From UHGV virus genome UHGV-0168042: a stretch of 64,000 nucleotides of DNA; one strand, given 5' to 3'. Source of the DNA: a virus. The notes beneath the pieces were generated by a model. The model ran no database searches and was not told the origin of the DNA. It saw nothing but the letters and a program-made list of their open reading frames with translations. The position numbers and the translations under genes were made by a program. The stretch's first letter is position 1. Each line of letters begins with the position of its first letter. Below are positions 5,169-48,600 of this stretch, one piece after another.

Positions 5169-5968
5169 TCGATCACTCCGTTTTGAGTCGTATCAAAATT
5201 TCTGGCAGGTATGCAGTAGTAAAGCGAACCAACATGCTGTGTGCCGTAGCTAAAAATACGGTGCACGTACCACCAGCGGCGGGCTACGCCGTTTACCATC
5301 TCTTCATTCCATTCAAGAATTGAGCCGACGGGGACGTTATTTGCTGCAATACGCAGAATCAGAACATCATCGGTTAAGCCATCCTGCTCACCGTCTGCGT
5401 CAATCGCATGGAAAGAGTCACGCCCGTCAGGGTTATCCAGCACATAAACGATTTCAGGTTCCTGGTAAGTCAGTTCGCGTTGGTTGTTATCCAGTTCAGT
5501 GAATGACTCTTCTCCTGTTTCGTCGCTGACTACCCCATATGTGCCAACATCTGGTCGATATAAGAGAGCCTGAAACGCGTCTGGGCTGGATTCAATAATC
5601 AGCATCCAGTCTGCGCGGATTTGGTCGTTAAAGGCTTTATGCCCGTTATAGCGTGCTTTTAACTGTGGAGTCGGTTCTCTCCCAGCCAGGGAAGATGGAA
5701 GTATGGCTATATCTGATTCGCCAGCATCCGAAGTAAGGCCACCGTTGCTATCAGCAAAATTATCATGGCTATCAGCTTTGGCGGCGGGTTGCTCTTCCAG
5801 AATGCTGAATGAATCCGAACCGGTATTGCCATGTTCCGGCGCGCCTCCTGCATTCGCTTCAATCGGTGCTGGCGTTTCTCTCTGCGTGCTGTCATGTTCT
5901 GACTCCTTACTTGCCAGGTTTGCATCGTCAGCAAACCATTCGTCAAAACGGCCCATAAGCATCCTCAA
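5165..5968 (-). CDS. Hypothetical phage protein with acidic N-terminal region
   Basis: 267-aa ORF; D/E-rich N-terminal half; first gene of the 4-gene minus-strand operon. Confidence 0.35.
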   Translation of the reverse strand: MRMLMGRFDEWFADDANLASKESEHDSTQRETPAPIEANAGGAPEHGNTGSDSFSILEEQPAAKADSHDNFADSNGGLTSDAGESDIAILPSSLAGREPTPQLKARYNGHKAFNDQIRADWMLIIESSPDAFQALLYRPDVGTYGVVSDETGEESFTELDNNQRELTYQEPEIVYVLDNPDGRDSFHAIDADGEQDGLTDDVLILRIAANNVPVGSILEWNEEMVNGVARRWWYVHRIFSYGTQHVGSLYYCIPARNFDTTQNGVIE

Positions 5969-6118
5969 AGGTCGATCTGTCAGGTATCGAAAGGAAGATT
6001 TTCGGGAGATTGTGATTTTGGATGAAGGAGGGGGAATTCATAAAATGCACTTGCGCACAGTGCAACAGTGCGCTATAGTTATGGCATTCGGTAATCATCA
6101 CGGAGGATCAAATGACTA

Positions 6119-6421
6119 ATGACCAAAAAAATTAACATAAAGGATTTCAGGGATGCGTGGCTTGATGATTTTTTTGAATTTTCAACACCACATAGAAAGA
6201 TACCTCCTGATATTCATATGACATTGTCACGGAAGTTGGACATTATCAATGCCGCAACTACCTGTAAGGATTTAAGATCACCACCAGGTAATCGGTATGA
6301 GGAACTGTCAGGGAAGCTAAATGGCTATTCATCAGTAAGGGTGAATAAGCAATATAGGTTAATTTTTAAGTGGGTTAACGGAAAGGCCGAGGACTTGTAT
6401 CTCGACCCTCACAAATACTAA
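6119..6421 (+). CDS. higB: HigB-type toxin (RelE/ParE superfamily, plasmid maintenance killer protein)
   Basis: 100 aa; KDLRSPPGNRYEELSGKLNGYSSVRVNKQYRLIFKW matches HigB killer family; AT-rich; upstream near-palindrome TGCGCAC-N9-GTGCGC in the promoter region. Confidence 0.75.
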   Translation: MTKKINIKDFRDAWLDDFFEFSTPHRKIPPDIHMTLSRKLDIINAATTCKDLRSPPGNRYEELSGKLNGYSSVRVNKQYRLIFKWVNGKAEDLYLDPHKY

Positions 6422-6491
6422 AACAGATACCCGGTTACGGACCGGGTTCTGACCAGAGTCCACTTAATACGCACGCTAGTAAGGGCAAAAA

Positions 6492-6830
6492 ATGAAACAG
6501 GCAACCAGAAAACCGACGACCGTAGGTGATATCCTGCTGTACGAATACCTGGAGCCGTTAGAGCTGAAGATCAACGAGTTAGCAGAAATACTTCATGTTC
6601 ATCGTAACACCGTAAGTGCTCTTGTTAATAATAATCGTAAGCTAACGATGGATATGGCATATCGCCTGGCAAAAGCATTCGATACTTCTGTAGATTTTTG
6701 GATTAATCTCCAGACCGCAGTAGACCTGTGGGAAGTCGAAAATGACATGCGCGTTCAGGAAGAGTTAAGTCGTATCAATACTGCTGAAAAATTTATTTCT
6801 CAGCGGAACCTGAATAAAAAAGCAGCCTGA
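6492..6830 (+). CDS. higA: HigA-type antitoxin (XRE-family HTH, YbaQ-like)
   Basis: 112 aa; TVGDILLYEYLEPL...RNTVSALVNNNRKLT...FWINLQ pattern typical of HigA/VapI antidote proteins; directly downstream of higB. Confidence 0.75.
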   Translation: MKQATRKPTTVGDILLYEYLEPLELKINELAEILHVHRNTVSALVNNNRKLTMDMAYRLAKAFDTSVDFWINLQTAVDLWEVENDMRVQEELSRINTAEKFISQRNLNKKAA

Positions 6831-6851
6831 TATAGTAAAACACATACAAAA

Positions 6852-6881
6852 AGCCCACTTAACAAGTGGGCTTTCCTTTGG
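6852..6881 (+). terminator. Rho-independent terminator-like hairpin after higA
   Basis: AGCCCACTT-AAC-AAGTGGGCT followed by TTCCTTTGG; overlaps the GTG start proposed by the ORF track for the next gene. Confidence 0.4.
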
Positions 6882-6886
6882 AATTA

Positions 6887-7246
6887 ATGAACATTAAAAC
6901 TATCCGTACAGAACAAGATTATGAGGCCGCACTGCGTGCGGTAGAACCGATGTTCGATAACGAACCGGAAACGAACACCCCGGAAGGTAATTTCTTGGAG
7001 GTTATGTGTCTTCTCATTGAGGAGTACGAGAAAAAACATTACCCAATTGAGCCGCCATCACCTATTGAAGCCATTAAATCCCGTATGGAATAGCAAGGGT
7101 TGACCGTGAAGGATCTGGAACCGGCGATTGGTAAGTCAAATCGTGTTTACGAAGTGCTAAATGGGACACGAAATTTAACGTTACCTATGATTCGTCGTTT
7201 ACATTCCCAGTTTGGCATTCCTCTTGAAAGCCTAGTTGGTGTTTAA
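6887..7246 (+). pseudogene. HigA/YgjM-type XRE antitoxin-like gene interrupted by an in-frame amber (TAG) codon at 7091-7093
   Basis: Reading frame MNIKTIRTEQDYEAALRAVEP...IEAIKSRME-TAG-QGLTVKDLEPAIGKSNRVYEVLNGTRNLTLPMIRRLHSQFGIPLESLVGV continues in frame to TAA at 7244-7246; N-domain plus C-terminal HTH architecture matches YgjM-type HigA. Confidence 0.55.
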
Positions 7247-7306
7247 GTTTGGCAGTCTGGAGGGCCGATTTTACATAAAATCAAGGTTTAAATATTTGGT
7301 GATTAT

Positions 7307-8047
7307 ATGAGCACTGATTCATCAATAGAAAAGGAAAATGAAAAATCATCCGCCCAAAATCTGATAGAAGATGCTGTAAAAGATAAGTTGTTTAATAAGG
7401 TTTTTGCCTACATTTTTATTTCATTTTTAATTTCTAACTGGCGAGATATATTTATATTGTTGAAGTCAAAAGATGATGTTATGTATACATTATCTATGGT
7501 GTTTGTTGGGGAAAAGATTCCATTATTTGGGAATGTTTTTGTACCCTCATTCGTAGCTCATTTTGTCTTGCCTTTTATTTATGGTGTTGTGGCTTCAATA
7601 TTAGCCCCAATGTTAACTTTACTAATTTCTATGGTGACTGGCACAATATACGCTAAATTGAGAGAGATAGATAAAATTGAAGACAAAAAAGAACAAGTAA
7701 GAAAAATTAACAGAGACATTAATGATCTTACTAAGAAACGGAAAGACGTTGAAGAGCGTCTTGAAAAAGAAAAAGAAGAACATGAATCATTAAAAAGAAA
7801 GGTAGAAGAAGTTAGGGAACAGATTGAATGTGTGGATAGCGATATCCGTCATGTTATTAAATTATATAGAGAGAAAGGTGAGAGCTTAAATTCGTTGGAT
7901 GATTTTTATGAATTTTTTACTGCCGTGAAAAACTCATCTTTTCGTTCGGGTGATACAAATGACAGGGAGACACTTGAGGAGATTCTCTCAAAGCTTTCTG
8001 ATTCACTTGAAAAAATTAAATGCGATGCTAATAAAAAGGTGGGATAA
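7307..8047 (+). CDS. AT-rich membrane protein with C-terminal coiled coil (function unknown; candidate exclusion/defence cargo)
   Basis: 246 aa; two hydrophobic segments (FAYIFISFLISNW..., VPSFVAHFVLPFIYGVVASILAPMLTLLISMV) then K/E-rich heptad-like region; roughly 30% GC versus about 50% in flanks. Confidence 0.55.
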   Translation: MSTDSSIEKENEKSSAQNLIEDAVKDKLFNKVFAYIFISFLISNWRDIFILLKSKDDVMYTLSMVFVGEKIPLFGNVFVPSFVAHFVLPFIYGVVASILAPMLTLLISMVTGTIYAKLREIDKIEDKKEQVRKINRDINDLTKKRKDVEERLEKEKEEHESLKRKVEEVREQIECVDSDIRHVIKLYREKGESLNSLDDFYEFFTAVKNSSFRSGDTNDRETLEEILSKLSDSLEKIKCDANKKVG

Positions 8048-8068
8048 ACCCACCTTTGTTAATTTTTT
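8036..8068. terminator. Bidirectional rho-independent terminator between convergent genes
   Basis: GGTGGG-ATAAA-CCCACC hairpin flanked by A-run and T-run (TTTGTTAATTTTTT); stop codon of 7307-8047 lies in the loop. Confidence 0.5.
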
Positions 8069-9249
8069 ATGTACTCCATGAACATTTTTTCAGCTTGTGC
8101 TGGTGGTGTTCCAGCCATGACAAGCGCATCAATGAACGCCTGCTTCTTCAGTGCGAACTGATCGGCAAGGCGTTGCTGAAGTTCCTTATTTTTCTGTTTC
8201 TCACGTTGCAAGGCCGCTTCTTTTGCAGCCGCCCGTTTTTTCTGTGCGTCTGACAACTTTCTGGCCCTGGTCAATTGGTCACGTAGCTTGTCGATATTGC
8301 CGTTGTCCTTTGCCAGTTTTGTACTTAAAGCTGCCTGGCGCTTCTGATAGAGCCTCCATTCGCGTTTGGCGGCTTCAACGTTTGTTTTACTGCTTCGATT
8401 GCGATTAAACTCCTTCTCGTCTTCTTTTGAGAAGTGTTTGGTTGTACGGCGGCGATCGTCACCAAATGCAATTTGCGTTGCAGCCTTTTGTAGCGCACGA
8501 GCAATACTCATTTGCCAACTGGCGGACTGTAACCGCGTCATTGAGTGGATCACGTGTTTACAGGCGACGCCTTGCAGCTTCGGGTTGCGAACTTTTGGAT
8601 AGGCGTATTCTTTTGGCGGGGCCAGGGCAAAGTTACCCGCAGTAGCGATGTAACGATACCAGTATTGATGACGACCACAGTCACAATCGAAAGACACTCG
8701 CCCGGCGCACAGTGATTTAGTGATTTTGAGAGCTGATTTATCGTCTTCTGCGATGTCATCGACCATCTGATCCCATTCTTCAAAGCGTATCCGGACGATA
8801 TGGTGCTGGTGGACGGATATATCCGATGCTTCTACGCGGATATTAATCACGTTGTGGCGAAGAGATACGGGGGTAGCTCTTTTGATACCAGATCCGTCAT
8901 CCACGGCGTTATTTGCACGCTTAATATCGATTGCCTGGCTGGATGCCACCAGCTGGGCGTATGTGATGCCAGCCGTCTTGCTGTCATATTTTTCGCGTGT
9001 TTTACTCCGTAGCTTTTCGAAACCTTTCAGGTCGTCTCGCGTGAAGAACGTGCCGCCTTTTTTCTTCCCTAACTTGAGAATATCTTCGGCGGATTTGTTC
9101 CTCAGTCCACCTGGCGTCAGCGTCCGGTGAGCTTGTCGGCGCTTACGGGTTTGTTCTTTCCTGATAATCTCGAATATACGCGTGAAGTCCTTAGAGGACA
9201 GACCGTCAGTGATATAGCGCCCGTCCTGGTTTTTCAGGAAATCAGGCAT
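8059..9249 (-). CDS. Hypothetical protein with SWIM-type zinc-finger-like motif and basic coiled-coil C-terminus
   Basis: 396 aa; FDCDCGRHQYW...CKHVIH fits a CxC-Xn-CxH motif; C-terminal 120 aa K/R/E/Q-rich. Confidence 0.45.
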   Translation of the reverse strand: MPDFLKNQDGRYITDGLSSKDFTRIFEIIRKEQTRKRRQAHRTLTPGGLRNKSAEDILKLGKKKGGTFFTRDDLKGFEKLRSKTREKYDSKTAGITYAQLVASSQAIDIKRANNAVDDGSGIKRATPVSLRHNVINIRVEASDISVHQHHIVRIRFEEWDQMVDDIAEDDKSALKITKSLCAGRVSFDCDCGRHQYWYRYIATAGNFALAPPKEYAYPKVRNPKLQGVACKHVIHSMTRLQSASWQMSIARALQKAATQIAFGDDRRRTTKHFSKEDEKEFNRNRSSKTNVEAAKREWRLYQKRQAALSTKLAKDNGNIDKLRDQLTRARKLSDAQKKRAAAKEAALQREKQKNKELQQRLADQFALKKQAFIDALVMAGTPPAQAEKMFMEYIKN

Positions 9250-9571: not shown

Positions 9572-9764
9572 AACAAAGCCTCTCAGTCATAACCTGGTGG
9601 AAACTGTATGCAGGGTGTGAAATGCGAGAAACAGACAGGCCACCAGTTCAGGGGGATGTGGTTCATAAATCCCCTCACTGGTGACAAGTGACTTTCATTA
9701 ATCTTTATGCGGGGGCCAGCTTCATTTGCTGGCATTAGATTAAAAATTAAACGGAGTGAATGAC

Positions 9765-9899
9765 ATGGATGTTATCTTCGAATTATTAATGCTAATTGAT
9801 CTGTTTATGAACGCTTCATTGACCACGCAAATACTGGCGTCAATATTTTTGTTACTCTTCTACCTGGTATTGAGGGAGTTAACAAAGCTACTAATGTGA
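9765..9899 (+). CDS. Small hydrophobic peptide (44 aa), possible membrane peptide/toxin
   Basis: ATG preceded by GGAG 8 nt upstream; MDVIFELLMLIDLFMNASLTTQILASIFLLLFYLVLRELTKLLM; below ORF-track length cut-off; ends 1 nt before the convergent gene's stop. Confidence 0.25.
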   Translation: MDVIFELLMLIDLFMNASLTTQILASIFLLLFYLVLRELTKLLM

Positions 9900-44956: not shown

Positions 44957-45217
44957 TTAAAGGGTTATTTTATCCTGTTCGGATAATTCTTTGATTGTCT
45001 TGTCGATTGCGATCAACCAACCTTCATAGGTTAAATCATCAACAAGTTCTACCAACTTATCATCGGTGTGAGGAAAGTATATCCAGCTCCAGTTCGCAGG
45101 GTTTTCTGCTTTTCGCAGCGTAAAAACCTTCTTGTATCGGTGGAACTCAAGGATATACCCCTTCGATATGGAATATTCCTTTAGGTCTTCGACCGTAAAC
45201 CTACGATTCTTTCGCAT
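44957..45217 (-). CDS. Hypothetical protein
   Basis: 86-aa ORF downstream of the DarB-like gene. Confidence 0.4.
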   Translation of the reverse strand: MRKNRRFTVEDLKEYSISKGYILEFHRYKKVFTLRKAENPANWSWIYFPHTDDKLVELVDDLTYEGWLIAIDKTIKELSEQDKITL

Positions 45218-45219
45218 GG

Positions 45220-45654
45220 CTACCCCATGATTCGATATTTCTCTATAGACTCGTCGTAACTTATGTACACGTATGGCTCTGTATCATCAGCATAAGGTGC
45301 GACTTCCAGAGCATGAACGGGATTGTATACCGCGTCATTTTCCAGGCGATCGCTCGAATACAGATGCCCAGCCAAAACCGTAAGCGCCGGGCGACTCATT
45401 TTGTAGATCTCTGCCACATCACTATCTACAACTTGTCCAAATGATATGTCGCCGCGCTCCAGCAATATCGTTTTGAGCGCGGGCCACCACGGACCATAAA
45501 GGTGATAAAGCTGTGGATTTTTCTTCAGTCTTTCTACCATGCCATCAAGATAAACTGTCAGGTATTCTTCTTCACTCCTGCCATTGAGCGCCTGCGGCAA
45601 GATTTCCTCAAGGTAGGATTCCGTCGGTTTTACAGTGTCAATTAGTGTCGTCAT
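45220..45654 (-). CDS. Hypothetical protein
   Basis: 144-aa ORF; AAGGAG lies 25 nt upstream of the ATG with a hairpin in between. Confidence 0.45.
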   Translation of the reverse strand: MTTLIDTVKPTESYLEEILPQALNGRSEEEYLTVYLDGMVERLKKNPQLYHLYGPWWPALKTILLERGDISFGQVVDSDVAEIYKMSRPALTVLAGHLYSSDRLENDAVYNPVHALEVAPYADDTEPYVYISYDESIEKYRIMG

Positions 45655-45690
45655 TCAAATTCGGCCCCGGTTGGGGCCGCTCCTTATCTG
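45655..45690 (-). promoter_or_regulatory. Hairpin inserted between Shine-Dalgarno and start codon (split RBS)
   Basis: Minus strand: AAGGAG-CGGCCCC-AACC-GGGGCCG-AATTTGA-ATG; folding brings the SD to about 7 nt from the ATG. Confidence 0.35.
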
Positions 45691-48600
45691 TTAGGCCGCA
45701 TCGGCGATTATTTTACGCAGTTCATCTACCGAGTAACGCGTAGATACCATCCACGCCGGACGGTCAAAGTTCACATCAGCAACCGGGTTTGCTTCAAAAT
45801 TCCAGAAACGCCCGCCAATCTTCTTAATCGCGTCTTTGGCGTTCCGTATTGTCGAGGAACCTGGCTGGTCGGCAATGAGATAAACCGCGCCAACGTCTTC
45901 GCTGACGCTCCACCAGCGCCCGCGAACACGCGCCTTAGCGCGAATCGGCTTATCATTAACCACAATGATATAGTCATCATTCGCCGCTTCATCAGCTCTG
46001 GCTTCAGCCACTGCCGCCTGCTCTTCTCTTTTGCTTTCAGCCTGCTCAAGCCTTTCCGCGATCTCTGATTCAGTGGCCCCGCCGTTTTTCAGCGATACAT
46101 AGTCCTGCCATGTTGCCGATTTGAGCGTATCCGGCAACTCATTCACATAGTCGCCGTCTTTCAACTCACGGGCGCGACGGGTAGCCATTTCTACCAGGCG
46201 ATTAACAGAAACAGCATCAGCAAAATCGTCCTTACTAATGTGTTTTTCATCAAATGCATTGATGACAGCCCCCACCTTAATCCACTGTGCTGCTGGTGAT
46301 TCCAGGGGGTTATCAGCCTGAACAATGGCAAGTTTCGCTCCATCTACCCCATTATTCGCCAGCTGTTCCAGTGCCGCCCATCCATCTGCATCACTGAGTG
46401 ATTTATATTGCTCAAACAATGCATCGCGCCAGGCCACCAGCGCAGAACGTGTTTTTTCGATCTTCGCCTTAATTTTCGCGATCTTGACCTGATTAAACAT
46501 CCGTTCAATATCATCGATATTGCTAAAGGCTTTCATCCTGCCCTGGAATAAACGGTATGCCAGCACGGTCCTCCAGAATGATTCCAGACCTTCTCCGGAC
46601 GGTTTGCGGAACAAGCTAAGAATATCTTCAGAAGTGACTTTATTAAGCGAACGACCTGACAGACCACGCCCAGCCATCCAGTTTTCGAACTCCTGGGCAA
46701 CATCATCCATCGTTGCCTGTGCGCCCCATGCCTGCATTCCCTGGATGTAATCATACCCATACAATGCCTGGAGGAATCCCTCGCCGTCCACGATATTCAG
46801 CGGGTTATCACTGGCTTGTATTTTTGCCACTTCACGCTTCAGCGCCTCGTCGTTGCCATCAGGATATATCCATCGCTCAGGTGCTATATCCGATGCTCGC
46901 CCGATTTTTTGGCCTATCACGCCATCATAGGTCGATGACAGCGCGATCTGACCATCATCTGTGCGATAAGCCCAGTATTTAATAGCTGACCCACCGCCCC
47001 ATGCATTACCAGGTTTACCAGCAATAACATTCATTACCCCATTGCGAATAGCATCATAGAACTGATCGCGAGTAAGTATTGTTGATAGCTGGTGGCACTG
47101 AACACCACGCGCAGCCGTTGCGCGCGATTCAGCTACCCCCTCTTCAAAAGTTACCGCTTCAATCACTGAGTCAAACGGTAATGTTACGATTGATCCAGGT
47201 GATCGAGCGTAACGGCTTGCTCTATCCAGCCAGGCGATACGACAGAGGTATTGTGCTTTTTCACCATCAATTTTTTCCACCCGGACAATCGCTGTTGTTT
47301 CGCGATCATCAATGACTGCACGGTAATAACTACCTTTATGCAACAGAATGTTCTTGTCAGTGCGCATATATTCTTGCGGGTTCTGAATAACATCGATACT
47401 GATATCCAGCACACCAGACTTAATAGCGCGCTCCACATCACCACGAGAGCGTTTCATTATGGTATCCGCGTCTTTTGCCCTGGTGATCGCAAACCGCAGC
47501 ACCCGCGCACGTTTTCTGTAGCTACTCAACTGCTCAAGCGCGTATTTTTGCCCATTCCTGTTCGTACCCGCTTTTATCAGGTCGTCAAGATTGCGCTGGT
47601 AATACTCTATCTGTTCCATCGCGCTTTTCAGTTCTGTCTCCATCATGCCGATATCTTTTCCGGCGGCGTTTGCCGCTTTCAGGTAGATATCGAGAGCATT
47701 GTTGGCCTCGCGCTGTGCTTTCAGTTTCAGACGTTCTTCACGCTCTTGCGCCTGGCGAGTCATGATTGCGCGGCGTTCTTCCGGGTTTGCCGCCAGCATA
47801 ATGGCGCGTTCATCAGCATCATCCGCATCACCATTGGCGATCTCTGACATGTCGGAGGTCATCACCATCTTGATCCAGTCTTTCTTACGTTTCAGCGTAT
47901 CCAGACGGAAGTCGTCGAATGTGCCTTTGCCACAATAGTAGTGAACATTGACCTTCTCTTGCGGTGAACCTACGCGCGCACCGCGCCCATTTCGTTGGTC
48001 GATACTGGCTGGTGTCCAGGGTAGTGTCAGGTGGTGGATATCGGTTGTCCCGATGTGCAGGTTAATACCTACTTCAGCCTTCTTGTTACAGATTATGATA
48101 CGCGTGCGACCTTCGTTATAGTCGGCGGCAATACCTTCCATGCCCTCAAGGCCAGCATCATTTTTAGCTGAGAGATAATCCTCATATTGGGCAAGTTTGC
48201 TGTAGTAGGTTTCCCATGCCCCTTCTTTGTATTCACCGTTTTTGTTTGGAGTAGGTTCGGTCGGCTTATTCACCTTCTTCAGCTTGATGCCGCCAGCCTG
48301 GCTAACTGTCGTCGCATTGATAATGCCAATCTCCTGCTCCGGCATTTGCAGTGCACTGGCGATAATACGGCGCAGCTTCTGGTGCTGGGCTTTTTCATCA
48401 ATAAAGACGATCTGCTTACCGTTCTTCAGACCTTCACGAAGATTTTCGATCAGCGCGGCATACTTCGGCGGGATGGGGTGCGATACCTGCTGCATATCAA
48501 TGCCGGCAGCCGCAATGGCCTTCAGTATTTCAGCTTCCAGTTCAATGCTGGCACGTATTTCAACATGCGTCGGATGTTCACTAAAAGCGGTCTTCACTAC

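Follow-up and report, generated by a model that had tools for sequence, protein, structure and literature searches.

A HigA-type antitoxin gene with an in-frame amber codon on a D6-like phage-plasmid, very likely the decaying remnant of an orphaned antitoxin

In this paper we describe an antitoxin gene of the YgjM-type HigA family that is interrupted by an in-frame amber codon. It lies in a 64-kb stretch of DNA (called the window here, by which we mean the whole stretch analysed) that we identify as a D6-like phage-plasmid of the P1 family. We consider it very likely that the feature reflects ordinary decay, and that the gene is the non-functional remnant of an orphaned type II antitoxin gene on a P1/D6-like phage-plasmid. 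RefSeq already flags the identical copy on plasmid pGF60-C of E. coli GF60 as a pseudogene, with the label 'type II toxin-antitoxin system HigA family antitoxin; internal stop'. The gene is of little importance in itself, since a toxin-less antitoxin gene is expected to decay. The locus is nevertheless a clean small example of toxin-antitoxin (TA) cassette swapping at a tail-gene hot-spot in P1/D6-like phage-plasmids, and it also illustrates the fate of the antitoxin that is left over. The gene and its parts are arranged as follows:

6887 to 7246, plus strand: pseudogene of a YgjM-type HigA antitoxin, 119 codons with one in-frame amber codon (translation, Pfam, PDB sequence search, orthology with D6 orf72)
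6887 to 7090, plus strand: remaining 68-codon N-terminal ORF, with the two-helix N-domain and the first XRE helix (domain limits from an AlphaFold model)
7091 to 7093, plus strand: amber codon TAG, codon 69, a C>T nonsense mutation of CAG (alignment, codon table, family representatives)
7094 to 7246, plus strand: cut-off 3' part encoding HTH helices 2 to 5, with zero private amino-acid changes (Pfam, model, codon table)

The frame runs from the ATG at 6887 over 68 codons to the TAG at 7091-7093, and over a further 50 codons to the TAA at 7244-7246. The pieces given in the ORF listing (6866/6887-7093 and 7100-7246) share this one frame. When the stop is read as Gln, the resulting read-through protein matches E. 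coli K-12/Shigella HigA (YgjM; PDB 5ifg, 5ycl) with an E-value of 6e-9 over residues 6-112, a match that spans the stop, and Pfam HTH_3 covers its residues 63-115. An earlier reading of the sequence alone (the sequence-only reading) had noted that the frame continues cleanly across the TAG and that both halves are HigA-like; the translation, the match crossing the stop and the HTH_3 domain bear this out. The read-through protein thus has the two-domain architecture of YgjM, with an N-terminal helical domain and a C-terminal XRE HTH domain. The AlphaFold model we used is that of an intact relative, 90% identical to the window protein and not the window protein itself, and has a mean pLDDT of 92.8. 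It contains a two-helix N-domain (helices 9-23 and 32-51) followed by a five-helix XRE domain (59-70, 74-81, 84-91, 99-109 and 113-117). Among solved structures, Foldseek ranks HigA chains of E. coli HigBA complexes as its best matches; these align over about 120 columns with 32-33% identity (33% over 120 in the case of 6kml_B). Placed on this model, codon 69 falls at the end of the first XRE helix, and the stop is predicted to remove helices 2 to 5 of the DNA-binding domain.

The region is 93.5% identical to Escherichia phage D6, a P1-family plasmid prophage, and the 2.1 kb surrounding the gene are likewise about 93.5% identical at the DNA level. Around 110 non-mobilisable plasmids of E. coli, Salmonella and Shigella also match, with sizes of 90-97 kb in the records inspected. 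According to the D6 annotation the locus is flanked by homologues of the P1 tail/baseplate genes 7 and 25, and the order of genes in D6 is orf70 (a RelE-family toxin), orf71 (a HigA) and orf72, a second HigA, which is the intact orthologue of the window gene. The window and D6 copies differ at 20 of their 360 positions. The 119-codon frame is not a chance frame: phage D6 and many plasmids have an intact, annotated orthologue of the same 360 bp.

Other parts of the neighbourhood vary as well. An ORF of 246 aa at 7307-8047 (plus strand), which has a long coiled coil and, by prediction, membrane segments at its N-terminus, is found 3' of the HigA gene in paired and orphan arrangements alike; Pfam, NCBIfam and PADLOC give it no family beyond coiled-coil noise. 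It is missing in several plasmids of each arrangement (L002, L010, L012, L016 and L029) and so varies independently. A few kb away there is a second TA cassette polymorphism: in the interval from the P1 gene 26 homologue to mat the window has about 200 bp (approximately 9634-9838), whereas pGF60-C (44997-45872) and several further amber-allele plasmids and contigs possess an additional RelE/ParE-HigA pair there. An Rfam scan of 5900-8200 gave no family near its gathering score, only hairpin-like chance matches.

The ancestral state of codon 69 can be read from relatives of the gene. We collected 12 distinct intact alleles from D6 and 13 plasmids, and the codon is CAG (Gln) in 11 of these and CTG in one. 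In the wider family, for which 120 cluster representatives were compared out of 4,536 matches at E<=1e-5, Gln is found at this position in 119. Because the relatives have a sense codon here, which is nearly always that for Gln, the TAG is a nonsense mutation, C>T, in what is otherwise a conserved codon for Gln. A sense codon at this site in related genomes was one of the checks proposed with the sequence-only reading, and all 12 distinct intact alleles have one. The CTG allele belongs to a plasmid of E. coli JS316, where an orphan copy that is otherwise intact has the same codon changed in a different way (CAG>CTG, Q69L).

The amber codon might also be a sequencing or assembly error in an otherwise intact gene. 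That the difference concerns a single base is the only point in favour of such an error, and the recurrence of the allele refutes it. In an exact-sequence look-up covering NCBI, ENA and Logan assemblies, the truncated product was found on 174 contigs as a 75-aa form starting at GTG 6866 and on 28 contigs as the 68-aa form starting at the ATG, that is, on about 200 contigs in independent assemblies. We read ten of these places, which come from different samples, and all had the amber allele and the same gene order. Over 441 bp around the gene the window is 100% identical to pGF60-C. We had at first assumed from this match that the window is pGF60-C, but blastn shows the backbones to be 91-99% identical with indels; they are two different elements that share the amber allele. 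In its first 50 kb pGF60-C has just three pseudogenes and zero frameshifts, and therefore its assembly is not error-ridden. We also had a candidate for an intact copy of the same allele, with all five of the amino acid replacements described below, in a database protein of 119 aa with Gln69. The DNA of both contigs behind it (268-627 of L019 and 145-504 of L020, ENA metagenome contigs) has TAG at this codon, which the gene caller had read as Gln. Some metagenome callers apply a code with TAG=Gln to short contigs, and this can make a pseudogene appear intact in protein databases. The sole Gln69 entry is an artefact of gene calling. We regard the probability of a sequencing error as virtually negligible.

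The recurrence of the allele also bears on its age. Pseudogenisation, which had been suggested as a recent event, is supported by the sense codon in relatives, by the relaxed constraint described below and by the RefSeq 'internal stop' label, but the word recent needs to be qualified. Amber copies that share the downstream context of the window show 0-1 differences per approximately 2 kb, and the allele is young; it is however not private to the window, being present on about 200 contigs and at least two plasmid backbones. Three of the amber copies (L019, L020 and L029) have a different 3' end and downstream context, and therefore recombination has taken place near the end of the gene.

A further possibility raised from the sequence was that the gene depends on amber suppression or programmed read-through, with full-length HigA produced in small, regulated amounts or in hosts with a suppressor. 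Suppressors of the supE type insert Gln, which is exactly the ancestral residue. The closest phage, D6, was grown on C600, which is a supE strain, and the stop codon is followed by C, a comparatively weak termination context in E. coli. The tRNAs of the element itself do not fit this possibility. ARAGORN finds Met/Ile(CAT), Thr(TGT) and Arg(TCT) tRNAs in the window, to which pGF60-C adds Ser(TGA), and no suppressor tRNA with a CTA anticodon in the 64-kb window or in pGF60-C; the source plasmid extends about 30 kb beyond the window. TAG is moreover an ordinary terminator in the window: it ends 5 of the 68 long non-overlapping ORFs (7%), ORFs in the standard code cover 82% of the sequence, and we see neither avoidance of TAG as a terminator nor in-frame TAGs in many genes, as would be expected from stop reassignment. 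The stop is found in one near-clonal allele only, with a sense codon in relatives, and a read-through protein would retain five damaging replacements. Dependence on amber suppression is thus not supported, and we hold it to be very improbable.

We prefer decay as the explanation, and the surroundings of the gene provide a reason for it, since the partner of the antitoxin is gone. In what we call the paired arrangement, present in some sibling plasmids, for example pF374-2, FDAARGOS_1059, PEC399, MINF_7C, pTB423 and GZ2408P, a 100-aa HigB of family PF09907 (WP_021551810.1) is followed, after 3 bases, by the same 360-bp higA. The toxin-first pairing with PF09907 is also seen for family members in Kluyvera, Providencia and Xenorhabdus relatives. 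NCBIfam has no family for this toxin, nor for the read-through protein. The window has no PF09907 toxin, nor do D6 and many other plasmids, and a complete but unrelated pair of a PF05015 toxin and a TIGR02607 antitoxin stands in its place:

6030 to 6886, plus strand: replacement cassette, approximate limits, with its own promoter region, toxin, antitoxin and hairpin (joints from alignments)
6119 to 6421, plus strand: intact HigB-like toxin of the RelE/ParE superfamily, part of the cassette (Pfam PF05015, E 4e-35; WP_000162415.1 in sibling plasmids)
6492 to 6830, plus strand: intact HigA antitoxin of 112 aa, cognate partner of the toxin at 6119-6421 (TIGR02607 antidote_HigA, E 8e-30; HTH_3)
6848 to 6876, no strand assigned: G+C-rich hairpin with a T-rich run, terminator-like, part of the cassette (RNA fold -15.7 kcal/mol, z = -3.9)

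The alignments place the left recombination joint near 6030 and the right one a few bases before the ATG at 6887. The terminator-like hairpin is located between the stop codon of the upstream antitoxin and the ATG of the pseudogene. The swap has also taken away the native promoter region, which in the paired arrangement contains two GTCCCA-N3-TGGGAC palindromes, TCCCAGCATGGGAC and GTCCCATATTGGGAC (L004, 2120-2164), upstream of the PF09907 higB. These palindromes are likely to be HigA operators that overlap the promoter, and they have 0 matches in the 64-kb window at up to 3 mismatches, so that the gene in the window has no promoter of its own with palindromic operators. A consensus scan found no promoter-like site at 6830-6887, from the hairpin region to the ATG; the overall count of promoter-like sites equals the expectation from shuffled sequence, which makes the scan informative only for the absence in this interval. 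The Shine-Dalgarno sequence before the start is GGAG in the paired arrangement and a weaker GGA in the window. The higA that is left over is thus without toxin and operator and, as the consensus scans suggest, without recognisable expression signals of its own.

The gene had been called an orphan antitoxin. This holds in that it has no cognate PF09907 HigB, and it is an orphan because the toxin, promoter and operators have been replaced by a different complete TA pair and a hairpin. The description had however left unmentioned that the gene sits directly behind this complete, unrelated HigB-like/HigA pair. Another toxin loss, or orphan antitoxin, may exist in two Kluyvera contigs (L032 and L033, 1103-1501). 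They share an identical HigA member with L031, but the 400 bp that contain the PF09907 toxin in L031 have no called gene in them.

The substitutions in the window allele give a further sign of decay. Relative to the 12 intact alleles it has ten private nucleotide changes, which amount to five replacements, one nonsense change and four synonymous changes. The replacements are P5T (6899), M29T (6972), D35N (6989), F37L (6997) and F65S (7080). Four of them affect positions that are close to invariant among the 120 family representatives, with P5 conserved in 110, D35 and F37 in 118 each, and F65 in 119; at position 29 almost all representatives have a hydrophobic residue, and only 2 of the 120 have Thr. 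The amber-allele branch has 6 non-synonymous to 4 synonymous changes, against 5 to 38 for the sites segregating among intact alleles (Fisher p=0.003). Pairwise pN/pS is 0.009 for paired copies and 0.05 for intact orphans; comparing the window allele with all others gives 0.14. Judged by these sequence comparisons, constraint is relaxed on the amber allele's own branch. The pseudogene has 10 private substitutions in 360 bp and the adjacent TA pair 2 in 712 bp, densities that fit neutral versus constrained evolution, with counts that are too small for proof. The multiple alignment is unreliable downstream of 7300.

Some of our observations fit the decay reading less well. The intact orphans, in D6 and about 24 E. 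coli plasmids, are strongly constrained (pN/pS 0.05), which counts against it. This constraint may reflect only recent exchange with, or derivation from, paired copies; the protein WP_021551809.1 occurs in both paired and orphan settings, and one identical DNA allele is found in a paired and in an orphan plasmid. It could also reflect some use of the intact orphan. The ratio of non-synonymous to synonymous segregating sites is 1:28 in paired copies and at least 5:31 in intact orphans, a difference that is not significant (p=0.21). In the amber allele all six non-synonymous changes are at or before the stop and none after it, which has a chance of about 0.04 and is not predicted by simple neutral decay. 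That the N-domain is spared by both known lesions, and that the amber allele is so common in public assemblies, likewise count against the decay reading.

That the orphan gene is dispensable is shown by a second lesion, which is independent of the amber codon. At two loci (L003 and L011) a 3' deletion takes away everything after about codon 60, and RefSeq describes the L011 copy as 'incomplete; missing C-terminus'. In both the upstream TA pair is still annotated as intact next to the deleted orphan, and therefore the orphan is not needed to neutralise the upstream toxin. Sorting the 93 complete E. coli genomes that contain the locus by the extent of their match to the query puts about 51 in the deletion class, about 24 among the intact orphans and about 17 in the paired class, while 1 has the amber allele; 6 paired, 7 intact orphan, 1 amber and 2 deletion copies were verified directly and the rest inferred.

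Both lesions leave an ORF that comprises the N-domain only, raising the question whether the truncated alleles might be functional mini-antitoxins. The N-terminal helical hairpin is the toxin-binding part of E. coli HigA, as known from HigBA crystal structures. A truncated protein consisting of this hairpin alone might be a decoy, for anti-addiction or anti-defence, that binds the PF09907 HigB made by competing sibling phage-plasmids or by host systems. In support of this possibility, each of the two independent lesions cuts off the HTH but spares 60-68 codons at the N-terminus. The amber allele is also widespread, on about 200 contigs, and the cognate toxin is carried by sibling plasmids of the same family. 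In addition, the toxin is closely related to component A, and the antitoxin to component B, of PD-lambda-2, a phage-defence system (PMC9519451). Two events are however too few for a pattern, and the near-clonal alleles leave no power to detect selection. Furthermore, P5T, D35N, F37L and F65S all fall within the N-terminal fragment at near-invariant positions, no promoter is detected, the terminator-like hairpin is situated upstream, and the Shine-Dalgarno sequence is less strong than that of the paired arrangement. We therefore consider functional mini-antitoxins to be decidedly unlikely. For the amber allele in particular a decoy role, which the sequence-only reading had mentioned for an orphan antitoxin on a phage, is unlikely because the DNA-binding helices are lost, near-invariant residues are replaced, and the native promoter and ribosome binding site are gone. 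We strongly doubt that an N-domain-only peptide, if expressed, protects the phage-plasmid against the PF09907 HigB of incompatible siblings (as anti-addiction) or against PD-lambda-2-like host defences. If this were true, decoy peptides would add a mechanism to plasmid competition and anti-defence, but the support amounts to a coincidence at most.

It is also conceivable that the gene now works as a split gene, in which translation ends at the TAG and restarts 6-12 nt further on, at TTG 7100 or GTG 7106, and the two polypeptides reassemble or act as separate toxin-binding and DNA-binding modules. The window allele has a private synonymous C>T change at 7100, which turns the CTG of Leu72 into TTG two codons after the stop. 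GTG 7106 is in frame, and the part after the stop has zero private amino-acid changes. Yet GTG 7106 is present in all alleles, so the TTG adds little, and with 10 private changes in 360 bp one that falls near the stop is unremarkable; the new TTG, 6 nt past the amber codon, is probably a coincidence. There is no Shine-Dalgarno sequence at a workable distance from 7100 or 7106, and a fragment starting at either codon would, according to the model, be without the first of the five XRE helices. Neither the cognate toxin gene nor the putative operator palindromes are found at the locus or elsewhere in the window. We give such a split gene very little credence.

Returning to ordinary decay, we propose the following course of events. 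An ancestral D6-like phage-plasmid would have carried a higBA operon of the YgjN/YgjM type between its homologues of P1 genes 7 and 25, made up of a promoter with two putative operator palindromes, a PF09907 HigB and a 119-aa HigA. Recombination then exchanged the promoter and higB for a self-sufficient cassette, in which a PF05015 toxin is combined with a TIGR02607 HigA and the terminator-like hairpin. For the higA left behind there was neither a toxin to neutralise nor an operator to bind, its promoter was gone and its ribosome binding site weakened, and it drifted without constraint. The lineage of the window acquired the five replacements at near-invariant positions and the CAG>TAG change, with the loss of helices 2 to 5, and in another lineage the 3' half of the gene was deleted. 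The comparisons above show the stop and its ancestral state, the exchange of cassettes, the surplus of replacements, the second and independent lesion, and the recurrence of the allele; the lack of expression and the order of the mutations are what we infer.

The relationship to known systems helps to place the gene. E. coli K-12 HigA (YgjM; PDB 5ifg, 6kml, 6jq4) shares the architecture of an N-terminal helical domain and an XRE HTH domain, at about 32-33% identity and an E-value of 6e-9. The YgjN/YgjM-type HigBA arrangement has been described for E. coli K-12 (PMC2814082), and the relatives of the window gene share its toxin-first order, with a PF09907 HigB directly upstream. The relationship is a distant one, and the window gene differs from a HigBA module in that it has no cognate toxin, no cognate operator and no uninterrupted frame, given the TAG at 7091-7093.

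PD-lambda-2 provides a second comparison. The read-through protein matches positions 1-119 of the 402-position PD-Lambda-2_B profile in PADLOC with an E-value of 4e-42, and the HigB of a sibling plasmid (L004, 2195-2497) matches PD-Lambda-2_A with an E-value of 1e-41. In this system the toxic component is B, a fusion of Xre and peptidase domains; it is neutralised by A, and defence also needs a third gene, C (Vassallo et al. 2022, PMC9519451). We considered whether the window locus is itself a PD-lambda-2 system and rejected this. B has a C-terminal peptidase domain, whereas in the window both this domain and an A gene are missing and a C gene was not detected; PADLOC finds no PD-Lambda-2 match for the 246-aa ORF downstream. 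The higBA of phage-plasmids may be a two-gene relative from which the Xre-peptidase defence system was built, or the reverse.

Orphan antitoxins that act as anti-addiction modules or as antitoxin mimics of phages are known, for instance chromosomal ccd against the ccd of the F plasmid, and T4 Dmd against RnlA. Like these, the window gene encodes an antitoxin, has no toxin of its own beside it, and belongs to a mobile element that competes with carriers of the matching toxin. Unlike the window copy, which is truncated, mutated at conserved positions and without recognisable expression signals, ccd and Dmd are intact, expressed and shown to work.

The nearest comparison is orf72 of D6 (ASR76362.1, annotated as 'HigA family addiction module anti-toxin', with plasmid orthologues such as WP_021551809.1). 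For D6-like prophages, higA-higB has been described as a post-segregational killing system, and a literature search on this D6 gene gave only such general mentions (PMC6799933). D6 orf72 resembles the window gene in occupying the same locus behind the same RelE/ParE-HigA pair (orf70 and orf71). It differs in that its frame is intact, codon 69 is CAG and the five replacements are absent, where the window copy has the amber codon.
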